A stretch of DNA of 63,139 nt, filler included, from Collodictyon triciliatum (GCA_043381765.1; 29 parts of 29 records of this genome joined end to end with filler, not necessarily neighbours in it); one strand, 5' to 3'. Shown: positions 23,919 through 47,901, numbered from the whole stretch's first letter. Notes: generated by a model from the sequence alone, not told the origin. Program-made: numbers and translations.

Positions 23919-26303
23919 NNNNNNNNNNNNNNNNNNNNNNNNNNNNNNNNNNNNNNNNNNNNTTAATTAATTAANNNNNNNNNNNNNNNNNNNNNNNNNN
24001 NNNNNNNNNNNNNNNNNNGATCGTTTCCCTCCATCTCATCCATCGCTCTCTTCCTCCCTTCTCTCCTCTCTCTTTCTCATAGTTTCATGCCCATGCTCAT
24101 CCTTTCGACCTCTATCTCCTTATACTTTTTCTCATAGCCATTTATTCCTTTATTTTCCATGTTATATTTTATCTTACCCTTTGGTTAATGTAGCTTCGCT
24201 ATTATTGAGTAGTCAGAAATTGTCTAGACTTACCGGTATATTTAAAATGTTAACGTGTTGCTTAATACAGCATCTAGGTTGAGTTCAAACCTGCACCAAA
24301 AATCAAAAAGCCTACAGTTTCAAGATTATCATCAATTTCTGTCCATAGAATCCAATCTAATTAAATTCGATACAGTTTTGTAAAGTCATTCAATATTTTA
24401 ATTTCTATGTATTAATATTACAAATCAATATGACGAAGGGAAAGTCTTGGAAAGGCTATTTTGAGTCTGAAATTCACATTTGTATTATATAACATATTAT
24501 GTATACCACAACATAAATGATTATTGTTTAAAAATCAAGGAAAATAGCATGGCGTGGATATATAAACCAAATCAAATTATCCTTGAAAGAATAATTCCAA
24601 CATACGTCCGTTATAAGTGAACTTCAAGGTCATTGGAAGAGGTAAAATATCCACTGAACAGACATAATATTGTAACGAAATTTGATTAAAAGATACAATA
24701 TATTTTTTTTTGTATAGAAAGAATGATATCTTTAAAGTGGAACCATATTTACTTCAAAATGTTAATAGACAGTATCATAATTTTTTTTGTGTGACTTTAA
24801 ATAGCAGGTAAATATCCGACATTTTAAGTATTCGGTGCCTGCGTGCAAGTAACATTCTCTACTAATTTTACTAAAAGTCATCCTCTTTTGATCAATTTCA
24901 ATCATTTCAACATCAAAGTCATTCCAAAAATATGAGGTAAAACTTTTCTGCACATTATTAAAGGTATCACAGCACGCTGGAAGACAAGAATTAAATAAGC
25001 GCTGTGGAGCTCTGCAAAACCTGTTACTTCTTTTGCACAAGCACCTTTTAATTTCAGGGTATTTAGGATTCTTACCAGTGCATAACCGCCCTTAATCAAA
25101 TTGGAAGGGTGGTATATGATTTATGAAGTATCGTTTTTAGTGAATGTGCTAGATGGTCTCAATGGTTTCAAAGTAGTCTGCTACAGTTCTGTAAACATAT
25201 GAACGAAACCCCGAGGATGCCTCACCTTGATAGTTTAGAAGACGCAATCTCATAAGCGGCCAGTAGATAGGTTCATTTACTGAAACAGATGTAACGGTCA
25301 ATTTCAAATGGATATGTCAAATGTCCGAGACATGAGGCTTTTACATGTTTAGCCATAAGAAAAAGTCTCTTTGGATTTACATGAACAGAAAGTGATATGA
25401 TGAAACCTGAATCAACAAAAAACACTGGATTGTACCATGAAATCCTGAATATTCAGCCATGTCTTGCACATTTATAGGCCATATTGGTCTATTAAATGAA
25501 CTTTCCCCCTAAAGTCACACATTATTTTCATCAATTATGAACAATTAACAAAGTTCATTATTTTGATTGAAAGTTTAAAATTTTAATCAACGACATTGCT
25601 CACCACACAGCCAATGGGCAGATATTTTTAAAGGAAGGGCATATTGTGTCGGTCTATTCTTATGCATCTTACGCACCATGAGTAGTACAGTTGTCAACTG
25701 TAGATATGACATTACTAGAGGCATAATTTATTCACATGCCCTTCGTTGTTTTCGATGTCTTGAAGTGGATTGGTTACGAAAATTCTATGCCAAAGATAAT
25801 GACACGAGTAGGCATTTGGAAAAAAGGTGAGATTTTTATTCAAATTTATTATCTATCTCTTTGAATTCTATTTAAATTTAAGATTTTTTTTGCAATGAAA
25901 TTAAACAAAAGTGGATAGAGCAAAAAAAACCTTTGCAAACGTCGAGTTAAGCAAAATGATAGAAAATTCGTTTTTCATCAGATACAATTGACGGTCAACA
26001 ATAATACAATCTCCATCAAGTACAATTGTCCCGGAAACGAAAATTGGAAGGATGAAGCCTTTCATATTGAATTTCCAGCCCCACAAAGGCAGTGAATTTN
26101 NNNNNNNNNNNNNNNNNNNNNNNNNNNNNNNNNNNNNNNNNNNTTAATTAATTAANNNNNNNNNNNNNNNNNNNNNNNNNNNNNNNNNNNNNNNNNNNNT
26201 CCTCCTCCTCCTCCTCCTCCTCCTCCTCCTCCTCCTCCCCCTCCTCCTCCCGTCCAGGAAAAAAAAAACGCTATATCAAGTAACATGGCTTGTATTGTGA
26301 TAG

Positions 26304-28380: not shown

Positions 28381-30263
28381 TTTGTCGAGTCGTATACGCG
28401 GATGTGATGACTTCCGTATTCACTCACCACGATTGTGTTGTTTGGACCTTCTGCAATCGAAACATGATGCGGCACTTCGTTAATCTTCACCGTGCGCAGA
28501 AATCCTCCCATCGCATCATATACGTTGATTTTGTCTCCGCCGCATCCAATCACACACACTTCGTTCTTTGAAGTCACACAAATGCCTTCGGGATTCGCGA
28601 TTCCTTTTTCTTGCAAAGTTGACTCTGCAAACGAGCGTTCATACTCAAACGCCCGGTTGAACTTCTCCACTTGATTCTTGCCATAGTTTGCAACATAAAG
28701 ATTGCCTTCGCTGTCAAAGCACATATTATATGGATAAGTGAATCCCCCAAAGTCGCTCGATGCTGTGCTTTGTGCGCTTCTTTTGCGGCCCGATTGGATT
28801 GTCTCAATCACATTGAAGTTGTCATCAAAGATTTGCACACGATATTTTCCACTGTATTCACCAACAGCGATGCGCCCATCAAGTGAAATAGCGATTCCGA
28901 TTGGATTATTGAATTGACCGGGGCCTGAACCATTCGTGCCGAACGTGCGATAAAAGCTCAAATCCTCGTTTAACACTTGAACACGATGGTTGCTGTATTC
29001 GACAACGAATATCTGCTTTGTCTTTGGATGCACAGCGATTCCCCACGGATTAGAAAACTGCTGATTTCCACTTCCCTGTGACCCGACCTTCTTCTGAAAA
29101 ACATAGTCTCTGATGCTGTGTCTCCACGCCTTCTGGTACAAGTCCACACCCATTCTCTTCTTCTCTTCCTCCTCCTTTGCAATCCGCTCCTTCTCCACAC
29201 GGTACTCTTCCACTATGCCTTCCAACTCTCTCATCTGCTCCTCTCTGTCCTTCATGCGTCTCTGCCACTCCGCGTTTTCCCTTCGAAGCTCTTCCAACTC
29301 CGTTTCGCACTTTGCGTGGATTTCCTTCGTCGTCTGTGCTCCGCTTTCTCCAATCACCACATCGCCCCCGACCTCCATGCTTGCTGCAAGCTGCTGCACA
29401 TCCACATCCACATCCACAATCTCCAACTCTTCCTTCTCTGCTTCCGTCTGAATGGCTGTCCGTGCAAACATTGCGCTCTTGAAAAGCTTGCTCACAATGC
29501 CGCTGTGCTCGTAGACTTCTTTCGACTCCTTCAGCATCGCGATTGAGTGCTTCAGAACCATCTCTGCTGCCTCCACTTTGTGCTGCGTGTACTTGACTCG
29601 GTCGCTTGCTGGCTGTAGTGTTGTCTTGACCTGAATTGATTGTTTTTTTTACTCATACTCATACATACAGAGAACATCATAGCATGCAAATGAGATGATT
29701 TTCTGATTGATAGATGCGTGAGAATGTGTGTATAATCTTGTGATTACCGTTTGCTTCAGCTTCTCTCTCAGCTCTCCCGCCTTTTTCACGATGTCGTCGT
29801 ACAGATTGTCGATCTTTGAGTTCTGCTCGTGCTCCTCGTGATTAAGCTGTGTCGTTGATGCGATTGAGAGGAATGATTGGAAAAGAAATGATTGGAAAGA
29901 AATGATGGAGTCCGTTTGTGGAGCACATCTTCTTTGAAACAAATGAAGCTATATGAATTGCAAACAATGATGCACCTTTTTCATTTTGGTGTCGACTTTC
30001 GCCTTGATTTCGGTGATTGAGTTTATCTTCCTCTCCGCCATTTCGATCAGCTCGTCTTCCTTGATTGATGAGTAATCGATACTCTCGACTTCAATGTAAT
30101 CGTGTGTTTTAGTGGTTTTTAAATCCTCAAAACCACAATGTGCGCACATTTCAGTGATGGGCCAACATTGTTTGCAGACCGAAATGATTGAAAGCTCATG
30201 TAGAATACATTTGCGCATGTTGACTGTGTGTTTAGCCCCAGCTTCAAGCAGCGTACTATTCAT
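28381..30263 (-). CDS. B-box-like/coiled-coil/NHL-repeat (TRIM-NHL-like, no RING) protein, 3' partial
   Basis: N-terminal CxxH...CxxC...CxxC...H pattern, then coiled-coil exons, then NHL repeats (GSGNQQFSNPWGIAV...VVEYSNHRVQV; GPGQFNNPIGIAIS; FTYPYNMCFDSEGNLYVANYG). Confidence 0.85.
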
Positions 30264-35038: not shown

Positions 35039-36074
35039 GTCATTCTCCAGGGGCGAGCATGCAATCTTTACTTCGACATCGAGTTTTACAAACAATTCAA
35101 CCCAGTTACTAATGGAGAGACATTAGTGACTATATTGCTGGACAAGATATTTGACTACATTTCTGTTATGTTATCGATGAGAATTAGCATGGACGATGTG
35201 ATTGACTTAGAGTCTCCCTCTGATGATAAATTTTCTCGCCATATTATTGTCAGAATTCCAGGATATATGTTTCTTGACAACCATCACGTAGGAGTATTTG
35301 TCCATAATTTTATTCAATTTCTTGAGAAAGAGAGAGAATATGACTACCAAATCGATGAACTGTTTGTATATGCTGATTCGACGAATACAGAAAAGAAGAA
35401 GCTTATTATTGACACATCAGTTTACTCCAAAAACCAATTATTCCGTATTATATTCTCATCAAAGAGGGGAAAGAATTCATACTTGATTCCATCAAGACGA
35501 TGTAATATTAATTCGAACCGCAAGACTATGTTCCTGGAGAGTCTGGTTACTTACCCTGCAAAAGAGGGATTTAAAATCATCCAAATCCCTGACGTGCCAC
35601 CGTACGGAAAAAAGGATTGTGATTCAAGGAAATTTAATCCCCCTAACACAAGCGAACCTTTATTATTTCAGATTCAAAAGGTGAATACCCGTGCCGAGTC
35701 AACCTGCCATTTTTTCTTCTTTCAAACCCATGTTTATCAGTGAATCAAAATCGAGTACAATAGTTTTGAGTTTATATGTTTAAGTGTAAGCCGGTTCAAA
35801 CACCCTTGCCATCATTTTTTTCTAACTCCTCTTCAAGATGCTCGTCACTCTTCACGCCAACTCAAACACCCAATTTATATAGTTTGTTGAAGAGGCATTT
35901 TTCTGCGAGTCGAAAACAGCCAGAATCGCGTCGTCGAAATACTTTCAAGACACATGCACTATCGTCTTTCAGATAAACAAAAGCTACCGATGGTGTGGAA
36001 ATATACAACGGGAGCACAAGTCCAACAGCATTATGATTGTTGTTGCCCTTAGGCTAGGACAGGCCTACCAAAAA
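35039..36074 (+). CDS. PRIMPOL: PrimPol (AEP primase-polymerase with UL52-type Zn finger), partial
   Basis: Motif I CNLYFDIEF, motif II KFSRH, motif III IIDTSVYSKNQLFRI, and Zn-finger YRWCGNIQREHKSNSIMIVV. Confidence 0.93.
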
Positions 36075-36639
36075 NNNNNNNNNNNNNNNNNNNNNNNNNN
36101 NNNNNNNNNNNNNNNNNNNNNNNNNNNNNNNNNNNNNNNNNNNNNNNNNNNNNNNNNNNNNNNNNNNNNNNNNNNNNNNNNNNNNNNNNNNNNNNNNNNN
36201 NNNNNNNNNNNNNNNNNNNNNNNNNNNNNNNNNNNNNNNNNNNNNNNNNNNNNNNNNNNNNNNNNNNNNNNNNNNNNNNNNNNNNNNNNNNNNNNNNNNN
36301 NNNNNNNNNNNNNNNNNNNNNNNNNNNNNNNNNNNNNNNNNNNNNNNNNNNNNNNNNNNNNNNNNNNNNNNNNNNNNNNNNNNNNNNNNNNNNNNNNNNN
36401 NNNNNNNNNNNNNNNNNNNNNNNNNNNNNNNNNNNNNNNNNNNTTCTTTTTTCATCGTTCTTTCTTTTTTTAAAATATCGTTTTTTTTTTTTAAAAAAAT
36501 AATAATCATTCTATCATTTCCCCCTTTATTCGATGCAAGGTTCATCATTTTATAATTGTTATCGAAATGATAAACTTTGGGTGAGGACTCTGTTTTTCTG
36601 TTTTTATTTTAATAAGATGCTCTTAATCATAGCTCTGGT

Positions 36640-37105: not shown

Positions 37106-38492
37106 TCCCGAAAGTGCTTCATCAAGTTCACCATTGAACACAGAGGAAGCAGTATCAATCGTGGAATGGCTTCAAAGTGGAGGAAACATCGCATGCCTCC
37201 AAGATTTCCAACCTCCTCAAGCCGATGATAGCCCACCAAACTCTCCTTTAAACCACGGAGAAAATGCCGAGGAAAGGGAAACCCAAGCTAACTCGGTAAC
37301 AGAATCGGGAAACATCATAATGGCACCCAGCAAACCACACCCACCAGCCACCTTAGAGGTCATGGCTCCTGGAACCACCCAAGAGACTCTTTCTTCAGCA
37401 AGTACTGCGCAATCCATAACAAACAACGTCCCAGACTCGGGATTGGAAGAACAACATTCCATCCAACCTGTCGTCATCATAGAAGGTTCTACTGGAGAAG
37501 AAAGTGAGCACCTTGAAGCTTCAGGAGCGACAAATTACTCCTCAAGTACTGTTTATGGGAGCAGACCAACTGTCGAAACTCTTGCAACTCCCCAGTGAGA
37601 AACGGCTTCCTATCCAAGAAAAAGAAACGTAGACGAATATAAAACACCGGTTATTCATCCTGACATCACTGGTGCCCAAAAAAATCGAAACAACCGATGA
37701 TAAAGCCTCTCCAGAGGAAAAGAGAGTGAATCAGTCAAGTACACCACCGAATATAGCGAGGCAGAAAGCAAATCAGAATGAAAGTGGAAATATAGTTGGC
37801 CCTGCCTACCGCGTGGATGAGGGAGAAAAATTGAAACCGAGGGGTTACTAGTGACTAACAGAGTGCATCTCCCAACACACCAGCTACAAAGGGGCTACAG
37901 CCAAAAGCCCAAGACCATCCGACAAATCCTGGCCGAACCGCGAGCAATTATAACACCGGCCAAATGAAGGACAAATCGAGTAAACCATCCCACCCTGAGC
38001 AACCCAGCTCCAGCGGAGAGAGCCAACCACCGGAGGCTACGGCCTCCAAAAGCCAATAGATTATTCATGCGTTTTAACGTTCTGTCGTGGAACGTTAGGG
38101 GGATTAACGACCCCCAAAAACGAAAAGAGGCCCTAAACACTGCTCTTTTCTCCCACGCAGACATCATTTACCTCCAAGAAACATGGCTCAGCCTTGAAAA
38201 TCTAACCAACAATGAAATATGGAAACGTCCACAAACGTGGTCATGTGACGATAATCAACAGAGACATGCAGGTGTAGCGATTTTATGCAAGAAATGGATA
38301 GCCAAACTCAATCCTCGCTTCAGAGAGATTATTCCCGGCCACTGCAAAAGTCTCGATATCCAAATCGATGGAGCTGACACCGGTATAATGGCAACATACA
38401 TGTCGCTCCAAACAGCAAGTTCAAATACTAGAATACACGAGTATGGGCTTATCTCTAAGGAGATGGAGTCTGCGAAACATATCATCATCTGC
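37106..38492 (+). mobile_element. Non-LTR retrotransposon family A copy 2: ORF1 with stops/frameshifts, APE truncated
   Basis: Colinear with about 15945-17330; ORF2 begins at 38067 (MRFNVLSWNVRGIN...LQET); similarity ends at IIIC just before GDFN. Confidence 0.9.
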
Positions 38493-43429: not shown

Positions 43430-45825
43430 ATCTTTTCCTGCTCATACGCAAAGCCGTCGTTTGCTTTGTTCTCGACTTGTATTTGGGGCTTCTTTACTCC
43501 TTTACTCTATTCCTCGATTTTACTTTTTTTTTTTTTTTTTTTTTNNNNNNNNNNNNNNNNNNNNNNNNNNNNNNNNNNNNNNNNNNNNTTAATTAATTAA
43601 NNNNNNNNNNNNNNNNNNNNNNNNNNNNNNNNNNNNNNNNNNNNCAAAAAACAAGAAACAAAAAAACAGAAATTTACGCATAATTTTTAATTAGTTTTTG
43701 ATTTTGAGCTTTCTATAATTTACTTTCTTTTTCTACCCTGTCTTAATACTATTGAAAGGATGTGGCAATAACACCATCAAAACAAATCCCCATTAAATAT
43801 TCTCGAGATAGCCGTAGGCCAAACAGCGTAGATAAAAGTGTATTAATGGCTAAAGGGTTTGTTTTAATATGATTTTTATAGACCTCGAAGTATTATAATT
43901 AAGAAAAATAGTGCGATTTATAAGCTATTTTCACATTCATTAATCATTTAGAATTATTCTATCAAACCCCCCGGCATCTCCTATCAAAAAAGAGTAAGCA
44001 TGAATTGACAGTCTCTTTATTATACTTAGTTTTGTTTCCAGAAGCACATCTTTCAACTATATATATAATACTAGTAATGATAAATATCAAATATGTCAAC
44101 GTAATCCTGTAGACCACGTCATCAGTTCCTTACATATTGCTCTACATAGTCGATACAATAGAGAACGTCCTACCTCGACTTCTGTTGCAGTACGCCCAAG
44201 GGTTCGTGTTATTCAAAATGGACACGTTCTCTAGCATCATACTTTTTTATAATAATTTGTAATACTCATATATACATTTATTTCACAATTCTATCAAATT
44301 CCTTTGAGTTGTATTTGCTGAAACGCACGAATTTCAAAACAATAAAATGTGATTAGCAATACAATTTAAAGAATCGAACTCCCTGGATTAGGTCTTCTCT
44401 TTGATTGGGAACTCTGTCAATGTAAGATAAGGTGCCCAACGGCGGACAAACTGTTCTAATAGATGGTGATGCTCGGGTTGATATGTGTATTTTTCGGTTA
44501 TTGTTATTTTAAAAGGGTGTCTATATCTACCTGAAAAGTTATTTTTTTTTGGGAAAACTGCCTGTCCTCGTCCGTCCTTCAAAATCATAATCTGACATTA
44601 ATTTTTCAGATATCTTGCCATTATCTCATGAAATAAAATTTATTTTTTCAGTCAGCAACAAGTGAATAAATCAAGCACTCACACAAAGCCTTCACCTACA
44701 GTTATTTTCCTCTCTTTTGCTACCTTCTTGGATTGGCAAAATATCGATGTATTGAGCCAGAAGATAGACCGATTGAAGTGCGTTGGATAAGCAGCAGATG
44801 GGTTGAGTTTAAGTCTGACTGGTAGGCAAACGACGCCAGCAGAAATAAGTTGGTGGAAGCGACCATATCTGAATGAGCCCACGAGGTTGGATTGCTGCAT
44901 GTTATGTTACTATTGTCAGATATTGTTTTAAATATAATACGAGACTCACAAAGTACCATTCATCGCAACATCACATAATCAAGCTGATGAAATCCGGTTG
45001 GTATGAAAAGAAGGCTCCAACATCTTGGGTGATTGCAAGGGTATCCCGATTTATTCGAAAAAAAGAGGTTCGGTGCCGACTCCGTCTCTTTTTACTGGCT
45101 GTTGTCAGCGAAGCGACATGTTTGATGGTAATACCCGATTATTCGCCCATGTCATCCGCAACACTTTATTGGTTTTAGAGTCGGTGGTGGGTTTGCCGGA
45201 ATTGAATGTCATGCAAGAATCCTACAAATGCTATTTTTTTACGTGAATGGTGTCTCTTTTTTCCCTTTTTCTTCTTTCTTTTTCTCTATTGGTGCGAATA
45301 AGTTTCTTGTTCGATGGAACTCGTTTTGTGTTGGAAGGAAAAGTCTAGATGTCAGCATCTTTGGGATATCTGCAAGAAGGATTATTTTGCCAATCCCAAA
45401 CAGAAAAGAGTCTTTTTCTTCCTCCTTAAAAAAAAAAGAAAAAAAAAGGACTTTTTTACTCATGATTCTGCAGAAGGTTTCATTCGCTTGCATTTGATTG
45501 GAAAGAATACGCCTTTTACAGGGATACAATACATCTTGCAGCTCTGTCCAAACTCAGCCGTTCAATAAATATGCAGCTTTCTGAAGCCATGTCTAACAAA
45601 TGAATATAACTATAGGCGGGATAGGAGGGCGCAGACTTGTAAAAGTAGCTTCATTTCTTCCCCTTTTCTCCTGTTGATATGAGAGTCCGAGGTTGCAATC
45701 AGGATTCACCGATAAAAAAGTCANNNNNNNNNNNNNNNNNNNNNNNNNNNNNNNNNNNNNNNNNNNNTTAATTAATTAANNNNNNNNNNNNNNNNNNNNN
45801 NNNNNNNNNNNNNNNNNNNNNNNAA

Positions 45826-45984
45826 CGGGAATCTCTAAACGAAATAACAAACCTCGATCAGAAACTCTTTGATGAAGTCTTTGATTTTGCTACAGCAGAC
45901 CCCTATTGTTTTCTCTACGTTAATTTAATGGTTCCTCGTAGAATCAAGGCCTATAAAAACTTTACGGAAGAAATCCTTTATTAA
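45826..45984 (+). CDS. C-terminus of an A32-like (FtsK-HerA) DNA-packaging ATPase, 5' partial
   Basis: RESLNEITNLDQKLFDEVFDFATADPYCFLYVNLMVPRRIKAYKNFTEEILY*, resembling the 'F..T..PY.FLY.N...Y.KNF' tail of PLV/virophage ATPases; not in the supplied ORF track. Confidence 0.7.
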   Translation, partial: RESLNEITNLDQKLFDEVFDFATADPYCFLYVNLMVPRRIKAYKNFTEEILY

Positions 45985-46000
45985 TATCTAGTCTTAATAT

Positions 46001-46165
46001 ATGTTACGACTATATACTCCTAATTCTAGACAACACGTATTTTTGACTTTTGAGGAGGCCCAGCAGTTTCTTGACTCGCTCTTTACAAAAAAGAATAGGG
46101 TAGACAAGAAAAGAAAATCTCTTTACTCTATTCTTCGTGGCCCTGTTACAGTTGTTTTTGATTAA
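46001..46165 (+). CDS. Small hypothetical viral-type protein (54 aa)
   Basis: MLRLYTPNSRQHVFLTFEEAQQFLDSLFTKKNRVDKKRKSLYSILRGPVTVVFD*; starts 16 nt after the ATPase stop. Confidence 0.5.
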   Translation: MLRLYTPNSRQHVFLTFEEAQQFLDSLFTKKNRVDKKRKSLYSILRGPVTVVFD

Positions 46166-46170
46166 AAGAT

Positions 46171-46369
46171 GGACCAAGTCCAAGGGATCAAGTCCTTTTG
46201 AAACTTTTTAAAATTCTGGACCTTCGGCCTTTTTCAAAAAAAAGGGGAAGGTCGGTATGAATAGTTTATTTTTATACTTGGACTAGTAAGGATGTCCGGG
46301 ACTTGATCCGTTGATAATGAGACTGAGAGGAGTAAGGAAAGAATGGAAAAGGATCAAGTGGTTCAAGTC
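46171..46369. promoter_or_regulatory. Direct/inverted repeat cluster (GG(A/T)(T/C)CAAGT) with central hairpin upstream of the replicase; candidate origin or regulatory region
   Basis: GGACCAAGTCC at 46171, GGATCAAGTCC at 46185, its exact reverse complement GGACTTGATCC at 46299, GGATCAAGT at 46351 and GGTTCAAGTC at 46360; GACCTTC..CCTTTTT / AAAAAGG..GAAGGTC hairpin at about 46219-46253. Confidence 0.45.
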
Positions 46370-46428
46370 AAAAAAATAAATGCCCACTTAAAAACATTTG
46401 TCTATGAGTAAGTAAGAACAAAAGAAAA

Positions 46429-47901
46429 ATGGAACTCATTGAATCAATCGACCCCGTTATCATCGACAAACTTCTGCAACAATCAGCAGAAAAAGTAGAC
46501 AAAAAGACAAAGGGAAAGCTAAGTGCAATTAAACAGCAATTAGTGGATGGGCAACTGAAAGTAAAATACGATTACTCAAAGCACTGCAGAAAAATGAAAG
46601 TTGGACGATTCTATCCAACGAGTGGTTCTTTGAGAATATTGGATAAGCCCATTCGTAATTATCTGATGAAGGATAAATATGCTAGTCTTGATATTGTTAA
46701 TTGCCATTATGCTCTGTCTTTAGAACTGGCAAAAAAATGGGACACACCTCATGAAGCTATTGAGGAGTATGTCAAGAACCGTGACAGTATAATTGAAAGG
46801 ACAATGGAGTTAACACAAAAGACTCGCAAAGAAGTTAAGAAGCTTTACCTGTCTCTGGCTTTCAGTGGCAAAGTCAAACCAATTGACCAGTTTGCTACTC
46901 AACTGCAATCAGATATGAACATACTCGCAGCTATGGCATATAGCAAATATCCGGAATGGCACAATCTTAAACTCCGTGAGTCAGACGAATGTTTAGCTGA
47001 TCACGACAATCGCATTTATAGTTTGTTGGCATATTTGCTTCAAACAGAAGAAACTAAAATAATGCAGAAAGTGATTGATGTCTTGGGTGAATGTGCGGTT
47101 GATGTTGGAATGTATAATTTTGATGTGTTGTTTATTGATAAAGCTCAATACGAAACCGGTGGAGAAATAGAGGGAAAAACCAAGGGCTTGACGATTTATA
47201 TTGAAAAGGAGACAGGGTATAAGATAGAATTTAGCTATGAACCTATTGAATCAACTTTTGAGCCTGATGAAGTTGCTACAACAGTTCCAATTGCAGAATT
47301 TGCAAAGACTCATTTTATGTTACGCGGTGACTTGTTTGTTGAGTATCCGGATGAACCCACTCGCAAACCCGAACATATTAAGTCTGCTTCATCTTACTGT
47401 GCGAGATTTGGTAAAAACTACTGGCAACAAGTACAAGCAACTATTCCGTGGGATAGATGTTATATGTACTTTGATTTTTTGCCGTATGACGGATTTACAA
47501 ACAAGTACAACCCAAAGGCCTATAACAATTTTACGGGCTTCAAATTTGAAGAGTACTTTCCTGAATTCAATGGATTGCAGTTGAAAGATTGGATTGGGTA
47601 CTGCAGACGCATAGGCGGTTCTGTAACAACTGAAGACTACACTGTCTGGAAAAATAGCATGACATATAAACAATTGTCAAAGTATCTCTGTGCTAGTAAT
47701 GCTGTGTCAGAGAAATATGTCATTCAATACCTAGCGAGAATTCTGTATCAACCCAATTATCGCATTGGCAAAATGATGATATTCAGAAACAACAGAGGAG
47801 GGACAGGCAAGACTGCTTTCTTTCATAAACTGTTTGTCCAGCAAATCATTGGAAAGCAATACGGCAGCACACACTCAAGTCTGTCTGAAATATTTGGAGA
47901 C
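46429..47901 (+). CDS. TVpol (family A-like DNA polymerase/primase) fused to a D5-like SF3 helicase, 3' partial
   Basis: GRFY...SL...IRNYL, motif A SLDIVNCH, motif B RKEVKKLYLSLAFSG, YLLQTEE and motif C YNFDVL; then YNNFTGF, YVIQYLARILYQP and Walker A GGTGKT. Confidence 0.82.

Follow-up and report, generated by a model that had tools for sequence, protein, structure and literature searches.

A contig of 2078 bp (positions 45824-47901) carrying the end of a putative packaging ATPase gene, a small open reading frame (ORF) and the first part of a putative replicase gene was analyzed for its gene content, its relatives and its origin. The contig belongs to a window of 63,139 bases (the whole stretch of DNA that was analyzed), in which 29 contigs of 2076-2096 bp, ordered by size, are separated by spacers that consist of TTAATTAATTAA flanked by 44 N on either side. 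The finding occupies exactly this one contig and has no physical link to the neighboring contigs in the window. All three ORFs are located on the plus strand, in agreement with a first-pass annotation of the sequence that had claimed three co-oriented ORFs at this place. Overall, the ATPase homologue, the helicase family, the TV-Pol residues and the synteny with related loci support the proposal of that annotation, and the contig is very probably a fragment of a small double-stranded DNA (dsDNA) element of the Polinton-like virus/virophage assemblage (Polisuviricotina) that spans the junction of a morphogenetic and a replication module. The features of the contig are as follows:

45826-45984, plus strand: ATPase tail ORF, 52 codons and a stop, open at the 5' end of the contig with its 5' part lost
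46001-46165, plus strand: small ORF, 54 aa, conserved, between the ATPase and replicase genes
46166-46428, no strand assigned: intergenic region at the junction of the two modules, containing short repeats as well as inverted repeats
46388-46396, plus strand: promoter-like motif TTAAAAACA, 41 nt before the replicase ATG
46429-47901, plus strand: replicase ORF, ATG at 46429, 491 aa without a stop, runs off the 3' end of the contig
46429-47328, plus strand: predicted TV-Pol domain of the replicase, residues 1-300
46606, plus strand: residue R60 of the TV-Pol domain
46684, plus strand: start of replicase motif A, SLDIVNCH
46690, plus strand: residue D88 of the TV-Pol domain
46825, plus strand: start of replicase motif B, RKEVKKLYLSLAFSG
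46825-46839, plus strand: residues R133xxxK137 of the TV-Pol domain
47113, plus strand: start of replicase motif C, YNFDV
47122, plus strand: residue D232 of the TV-Pol domain
47125-47127, plus strand: codon GTG of Val233, directly after the catalytic Asp232
47329-47901, plus strand: linker and first part of the predicted SF3/D5-type helicase, cut by the contig end
47797-47814, plus strand: P-loop GGTGKT of the replicase (Walker A)

The four replicase motifs lie where the first-pass annotation had placed them (46684, 46825, 47113 and about 47797), and its description of the genes as intronless holds for the ORFs as they stand and reaches no further than that. Pfam and PHROGs searches with these window proteins returned nothing above threshold, tRNA and Rfam searches of the contig gave no match, and no genes similar to those of the contig are present on the other contigs of the window.

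Packaging ATPase and replicase

Three related loci of 2.8-6.2 kb (L001, L002, and L003) were identified when metagenome contigs were scanned using the alignment of the replicase family. The 52-aa ATPase tail has no family match of its own in Pfam or PHROGs, and the Walker motifs of the ATPase lie off this contig. The tail is identical in 47 of 52 positions (90%, pair E = 1e-34) to residues 189-240 of a 240-aa protein encoded by L003 (1156-1875), which passes the Pfam Pox_A32 model (E = 9.8e-9, 35.5 bits against a cut-off of 22.8), and the counterpart in L002 matches the same family (E = 1.7e-9). The earlier assignment of the tail to an A32 ATPase, a guess when it was made, holds because the full-length homologue passes Pox_A32. 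The upstream gene is thus supported as the C-terminal end of a predicted A32-type DNA-packaging ATPase, which would pump the genome into a putative capsid. A short ORF lies between the ATPase and the replicase in all three elements that can be compared (the window contig, L002, and L003). The 54-aa protein of the contig shares 42% identity with its counterpart in L003 (E = 2e-8) and 28% with that in L002 (alignment A5) and has no match in Pfam or PHROGs. Just upstream of the ATPase gene, L002 (1-294) and L003 (820-1149) both encode a conserved basic protein of some 100 aa (...EKQRAHLAKIQPKATEAKKKNKE...) that lacks a family match.

The replicase has 11 relatives with 45-86% identity, each covering all 491 aa, and since all of these are 732-782 aa long (and all carry PF19263) the contig holds about two-thirds of a replicase gene of about 760 aa. 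Among these relatives, P0005 and P0009 (64-71% identity) and P0011 (51%) lie on contigs of 11-17 kb. With a profile of the 11 sequences, 5745 cluster representatives were matched at E ≤ 1e-3, of which 133 also passed E ≤ 1e-30; among the 150 matches listed, most are 650-850 aa long. The family search that had been suggested for the ORF at 46429 was informative through the relatives, with DUF5906 in 4/4 full-length relatives tested, but the window protein alone gave only a weak VapE-like match (residues 423-478) and its N-terminal domain no Pfam match. Among 63 diverse members of the family, DUF5906 was found in 61, VapE-like in 35 and Pox_D5 in 6. A PDB sequence search with the single protein or with the 11-sequence profile produced chance matches only (for example polybromo, E = 0.04-0.06), and a 100-sequence profile matched the “Primase” chains 6k9e/6k9c (E = 4e-40, profile positions 389-649) and the VapE-like protein 7pds (E = 2.4e-10, positions 414-596). 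The Walker A lysine K461 is invariant in the 100-member alignment, and G458 and G460 are conserved or invariant. Based on DUF5906 in the relatives, the PDB match and the invariant K461, the C-terminal part is a predicted SF3/D5-type helicase, as had been claimed, and a hexameric ring of this kind would open the origin and unwind the genome. The chains 6k9e/6k9c (presumably the phage NrS-1 primase-polymerase) and 7pds share with the replicase family an SF3 P-loop core with upstream and downstream helices, whereas any N-terminal priming domain they have is not a TV-Pol and the helicase of the window reaches only to Walker A. The five relatives whose C-terminal ends were inspected have a basic tail (...KRxRT(x)E) that looks like a nuclear localization signal.

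TV-Pols were defined, within an overall palm/fingers/thumb fold, by an N-terminal thumb made of two antiparallel helices, an arginine of a beta-hairpin that is absolutely conserved, two highly conserved aspartates of an RRM-like palm and a fingers module with the motif RxxxK (Iyer et al. 2008, PMC2579912). Three of these four features can be recognized in the N-terminal domain of the replicase at the level of its sequence: the arginine hairpin (G59-R60 within KVGRFYP, followed by a conserved LQ...R.IR), the palm aspartates (D88 and D232) and the fingers module (R133-K-E-V-K137). The 100-member alignment reaches down to 19% identity with the window protein, and its only invariant columns are D88, K137, D232, and K461; as these fall inside motifs A, B, and C and the P-loop, the motifs are not chance strings. 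In the second set of 63 members R60 and E208 are also invariant (R60 is 99% conserved in the 100), and the family consensus reads GRxY...LQxxxRxIR, DIDIxNCHP, RxxAKxxxLxxxYGG, LQxxE, and VLxxDG.

The Microcystis cyanophage Ma-LMM01 was named as a TV-Pol carrier in the founding paper (PMC2579912). A hidden Markov model (HMM) of the N-terminal domain (columns of residues 1-300) was compared by hmmsearch with the 62 ORFs of at least 100 aa in the first 50 kb of this phage and matched ORF 22746-24266(-) with 22.8 bits (E = 1.3e-7), whereas 2000 shuffles of the same ORF reached at most 5.9 bits. The ORF encodes the hypothetical protein BAF36121.1 (506 aa), lies beside two transposase genes and was the single match when the whole 162-kb record was compared with the 63-sequence alignment (positions 60-241, E = 8.8e-6). 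A comparison by hhalign of 100 N-terminal domains with the phage ORF and six relatives gave a probability of 96.6% (E = 5.8e-10, 238 columns) and aligned the arginine hairpin, LQ..R, D..NCH, K..L..G, LQ..E and the second aspartate (hDG). The candidate differs from the replicase in that it stands alone, without a helicase fusion, in a cyanophage, and identity is about 16% over the 238 columns. It is taken to be the TV-Pol of the founding paper because it is the sole match in the phage and adjoins transposases; a second ORF (a transposase, 10.5 bits, E = 7e-4) was set aside on account of an unconvincing gapped alignment. The conserved defining residues and the profile match to this candidate support the annotation of the N-terminal domain as a putative TV-Pol (family A-like polymerase/primase).

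A TV-Pol would be a minimal relative of the family A DNA polymerases, in which D88 and D232 would serve metal-dependent nucleotide addition and R133 and K137 would hold the incoming nucleotide. By analogy with CcPol-MP of SCCmec, the fused TV-Pol may make and extend DNA primers, in which case the element would need no protein-primed PolB. CcPol is placed in the TV-Pol group, as its one assayed member, and its gene is found with that of a helicase of the D5/VapE kind (Cch2); it extends primers alone and primes DNA de novo only with a small OB-fold partner, MP (PMC7581432, bioRxiv 10.1101/2022.12.02.518924). In this bacterial system the polymerase and the helicase are separate proteins with MP encoded between them, whereas the two domains are fused in the replicase of the window. 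The sole small neighbor of the replicase is the upstream 54-aa ORF, which has no shown relation to MP, and a role of this ORF in priming is speculation by analogy. The authors of the 2020 CcPol-MP study knew no other characterized member of the TV-Pol family, and on the basis of this statement (PMC7581432; later assays were not searched for) no viral TV-Pol appears to have been assayed. Being compact (about 760 aa) and well conserved, with catalytic residues that are invariant, the family would lend itself to tests of whether the fusion proteins can prime and extend DNA unaided.

Related loci and nature of the element

The order ATPase-small ORF-replicase is common to L002 and L003. In L002 these genes are followed by two genes (99 aa and 187 aa) and, on the opposite strand, by a 417-aa rve integrase (PF00665, E = 8.9e-11; rve_3, E = 7.7e-6) with a basic AT-hook-like end. 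Upstream of the ATPase and divergent from it, L003 contains a 295-aa ORF, a possible minor capsid protein. For the homologue P0006, the closest named clusters in the Atlas are viral and belong to the Preplasmiviricota (scores of 0.83-0.87, which are leads only).

Fusions of a TV-Pol to an SF3 helicase (TVpol-S3H), which the first-pass annotation had cited for Sputnik and some Polinton-like viruses, are documented for Sputnik, OLV, PgVV, and many Polinton-like viruses (PMC3671162, PMC4642659, PMC12220804, PMC9356565), including many cryptophyte elements (PMC12220804) and Tetraselmis elements (PMC9356565), and they are reported beside A32 ATPases in Sputnik, OLV, and YSLV1 (PMC3671162). The arrangement on the contig, with the predicted fusion beside an A32 ATPase, is described in the same sources for virophages (Sputnik V13, OLV25, and YSLV1) and for Polinton-like viruses (PgVV, PLV-YSL1, PLV-RED1, and the cryptophyte and Tetraselmis elements), a likeness at the level of the described architecture. 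L002 differs in that it pairs the replicase with an rve integrase, whereas the TVpol elements described mostly carry a tyrosine recombinase or no integrase (PMC4642659, PMC12220804, PMC9356565). Polintons/Mavericks and Mavirus-type virophages are likewise small dsDNA elements of eukaryotes that encode an A32 ATPase together with an rve integrase, but they replicate by a protein-primed family B polymerase. An assignment to the Polintons/Mavericks does not fit the loci examined here, where the replicase is of the TVpol-S3H kind, the rve integrase occurs only on L002 and no PolB is present on any locus. Polinton-like viruses and virophages are not separated in this assignment because no capsid gene was recognized.

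The element belongs to a known kind, and both TVpol-S3H replicases and module swapping are already in print. The suggestion that the virus is probably undescribed must be qualified in the same sense, as close relatives of the replicase are already present in public metagenomes as unnamed proteins. The contig adds one lineage, with relatives in water metagenome contigs, to the TVpol-S3H replicases of small eukaryotic dsDNA viruses.

Several results weigh against the assignment of the contig to this assemblage and against the domain assignments that support it. The contig ends inside the helicase, 29 residues past Walker A (Walker B and the later motifs lie beyond it), so that a complete core is seen only in the relatives. 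Neither a major nor a minor capsid gene is recognizable on the contig or on L001-L003, the 295-aa ORF of L003 has no Pfam match above noise and no PDB match, and IMG/VR viral contigs yielded no relative when scanned with this ORF, the ATPase or the replicase alignment. The text of the founding paper names the phage Ma-LMM01 and not the gene. None of the 63 members matches Pfam DNA_pol_A, no Pfam model detects the N-terminal domain, and PHROG and PDB sequence searches gave no match to it either. Comparisons by hhalign with 60 relatives of a Ralstonia phage PolA (P = 0.03-0.04, reversed control 0.33-0.43) and with 23 phage PolA domains (P = 0.08, reversed control 0.55-0.63) were not significant, and the hhalign probability of the PolA link is about 1%. 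Finally, residue 233, next to the catalytic D232, is valine in the window copy and glycine in 99/99 other members (alignment A2), and given this conservation the polymerase of the window copy may be impaired, or the base may be in error.

Five blocks are in register in the PolA alignments (GR with TGR, LQ..R with Q.N.PR, R..AK..L..YGG with R..GK..L.LGYGG, LQ..E with TQ..A, and hDG with HDE). When 23 phage PolA domains were each ranked by the N-domain profile against 200 shuffles of themselves, 19 outscored at least 195 of the shuffles and 10 outscored all 200, with a top score of only 8.1 bits; among the four domains that failed, two had no reported score, one was reached by 76/200 shuffles and one by 5/200. 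No control-genome loci were obtained when a phage record was searched with PF00476. These results are consistent with a link between the N-terminal domain and the family A polymerases but are not proof of it; the link is weak, and the PolA relationship of TV-Pols rests on the founding paper (PMC2579912).

The weak PolA link, the lack of a Pfam match and the G233V substitution adjoining the catalytic aspartate might also be explained by an N-terminal domain that is inactivated or unrelated and not a working TV-Pol. The protein would then be only a helicase/initiator, as proposed for other replicases of Polinton-like viruses in which the polymerase has degenerated to a remnant, and helicases fused to an inactivated polymerase domain have been reported in such elements (PMC5499653). 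However, an inactivated domain would not be expected to keep both catalytic aspartates, the hairpin arginine and the RxxxK lysine across 100 sequences as the family does, and the profile match to the Ma-LMM01 candidate is significant, which makes this explanation improbable. As to the substitution itself, metagenome contigs of three runs (X1, X5, and X6, described below) read G at 47126, giving the glycine codon GGG, and Val233 may reflect an error in sequencing or a variant that is either tolerated or damaging. The claim of intact reading frames is upheld by the absence of a stop in the 491 codons of the replicase and is qualified by this odd substitution and by the end of the contig inside the helicase. 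The replicase shows dN/dS values of 0.16 against L002 and 0.18 against L001, and in a 20-sequence tree it is the sister of P0004 (support 99/99), with a terminal branch of 0.083 against 0.084 in the sister.

A bacteriophage or bacterial mobile element with a PolA or primase-helicase gene was the context in which the first-pass annotation would have given up its reading. The first TV-Pols to be described came mainly from phages and bacterial elements (PMC2579912), and 13 records of a phage collection match the helicase part with 20.6-23.8% identity. The N-terminal domain is matched by none of the phage records (tblastn), and a prokaryote collection with one genome for each of 185,579 species yielded 0 relatives among 553 candidate stretches. 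Furthermore, the neighboring ATPase is of the Pox_A32 type, the relative L002 carries an rve integrase and the nearest named Atlas clusters are viral (Preplasmiviricota, 0.87, again a lead only). A prokaryotic or phage origin is therefore very improbable, and the assignment to the Polinton-like virus/virophage assemblage is preferred.

Mosaic ancestry at the intergenic junction

The two ends of the contig differ in their closest relatives. The ATPase tail protein is 90% identical to that of L003 and 52% to that of L002, and the replicase protein is 51% identical to that of L003 and 71% to that of L002. At the DNA level, identity with L003 is 85.6% over 45824-46017 and then drops to about 50%, and identity with L001 and L002 is 75% from 46387 to the contig end, a start that coincides with the motif TTAAAAACA. 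The stretch between these two blocks (46018-46386, most of the small ORF and the intergenic region) resembles neither L003 nor L001/L002. Judged by these identities, the left part and the replicase of the contig have different ancestries that meet at one intergenic region.

Four metagenome runs labeled as aquaculture or freshwater (X1, X5, X6, and X8) were compared with the contig. A contig of X5 matches 45824-46314 with 13 differences and a contig of X6 matches 45824-46208 with 8, over the replicase 181/1617 positions differ in X6 and 155/1526 in X1, and X8 contains 151-nt pieces with 0 and 1 difference; among the pieces listed, none spans the whole contig. The contigs of X1, X5, and X6 break between 46180 and 46376 and continue into unlike sequence, and those of X5 and X6, which come from two studies, share an identical 30-nt continuation after 46375. 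X6 is an RNA library, and its contigs over the stretch do not show transcription.

The intergenic region contains four copies of GGAYCAAGTC (46171, 46185, 46351, and 46360) with an inverted copy (inverted pair 46181-46195/46299-46313) and a hairpin (46219-46253). Folded as single-stranded DNA, 46166-46428 reaches -32.1 kcal/mol (z = -3.48), and 0/200 shuffles were as good. The motif TTAAAAACA recurs 38-41 nt before the ATG of the replicases of L001 (183-191) and L002 (1499-1507) and of the 99-aa gene of L002 (4179-4187, minus strand). It may represent a promoter element for the replication module, a reading that derives from its position alone because the motif occurs once in the 63-kb window against 3.44 occurrences expected by chance and so shows no enrichment by count. 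A TCTA motif upstream of two ORFs was dropped, as it is not kept in the relatives. The ATPase genes of L002 and L003 are preceded, just before the ATG, by a second and different upstream motif, TTTATTTCG[GT]TAATA (L002 about 295-321, where it is duplicated, and L003 about 1130-1155).

Module swapping between such viruses is described in earlier reports (bioRxiv 10.64898/2026.10.13.758929, 10.64898/2026.06.19.733378, PMC9356565). The contig fits the recent reports of this kind as a clean, small example of morphogenetic and replication modules of different ancestry. A further-reaching idea is that everything from the small ORF to the replicase forms a self-contained cassette for replication, exchanged between virus backbones at one fixed junction; in a bolder form, the 54-aa protein would be a priming cofactor of the TV-Pol, by analogy with MP for CcPol. 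This idea is considered unlikely. A fragment of the replicase upstream of the L001 replicase was at one stage taken for a footprint of module replacement and was dropped; L001 74-173 is an exact 100-nt copy of 401-500, for which reason the fragment is most likely an assembly artefact.

Origin of the contig and the remainder of the window

The organism that was sequenced is a eukaryote, because NHL repeats and two endonuclease ORFs of the LINE (long interspersed nuclear element) type are present on other contigs of the window. Two origins of the contig were considered, integration in the nuclear genome of this organism and co-sequencing with it, and any host or helper virus of the element is likewise putative.

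An endogenous copy, possibly old and decaying, would agree with the frequent integration of Polinton-like viruses in protist genomes described in two reports (PMC12220804, PMC9356565), with the rve integrase of the 71%-identical relative L002 and with a GC content (0.372) that lies within the range of the other contigs (0.309-0.474). The G233V substitution at a universally conserved glycine could represent early decay. Against an endogenous copy stand the 491 codons without a stop, the dN/dS of 0.16-0.18 and a branch no longer than that of its sister. In addition, the 2 kb of the contig contain no integrase, terminal inverted repeat, target-site duplication or host junction, both ends lie inside ORFs and not at microsatellites as in most host contigs, and parts of the contig are 97-100% identical in environmental water metagenome contigs. 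An endogenous origin is a real possibility that is somewhat doubtful.

A free virus, or an element of another organism in the sample (prey, alga, or symbiont), would explain why contigs matching parts of the sequence were found in all 4 aquaculture or freshwater runs compared, with the small numbers of differences given above for the partial matches of X5 (13), X6 (8), and X8 (0 and 1), and why none of 24 listed runs comes from a named organism. The contig is short, repeat-free and ends within genes, and the GC content at third codon positions (GC3) of its ORFs (0.32-0.37) is at the low end compared with 0.37-0.56 elsewhere in the window. These points have their limits. Water metagenomes include the hosts of integrated elements too, the composition of the contig differs only slightly, the ORFs used for comparison are heterogeneous, and GC and GC3 do not clearly separate the contig from the other contigs of the window. 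No run among the 24 listed contains half of the words of the contig, and the runs therefore say nothing on depth; sixteen further listed runs hold 0.05-0.21 of the words, which is no evidence of habitat. A co-sequenced origin is given about an even chance, and the evidence leans slightly toward it. For the genome project, this means that the contig may not belong to the sequenced organism.

The absence of microsatellites, which had been presented as a contrast with the host contigs, is correct for the contig itself, as Tandem Repeats Finder detects no tandem repeat in 45824-47901 and microsatellites begin or end most other contigs of the window. However, the contrast is weaker than had been implied because the adjacent contig (43645-45723) has no microsatellites either.

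The other contigs of the window contain several features of their own. Similar LINE-like units are located on two contigs (15499-17377 and 37134-38492), each with a Ser/Pro-rich ORF followed by an Exo_endo_phos ORF (E = 3.3e-6 and 5e-8). An ORF on the minus strand at 28381-29576, open at the contig end, combines a coiled-coil-like N-terminal part with NHL repeats (Pfam NHL, E = 4.8e-23) and is probably a host gene. A 691-codon open frame on the plus strand (17487-19559, 47% GC, Ser/Thr-rich) fills a whole contig and matches no Pfam family at E ≤ 1e-3. The reading of a 205-aa ORF (35126-35743, plus strand) as primase-polymerase-like is unsupported, with no Pfam family at the same threshold. A run of 369 N at 36075-36443 lies inside one contig and represents a scaffold gap, unlike the 44-N spacers.

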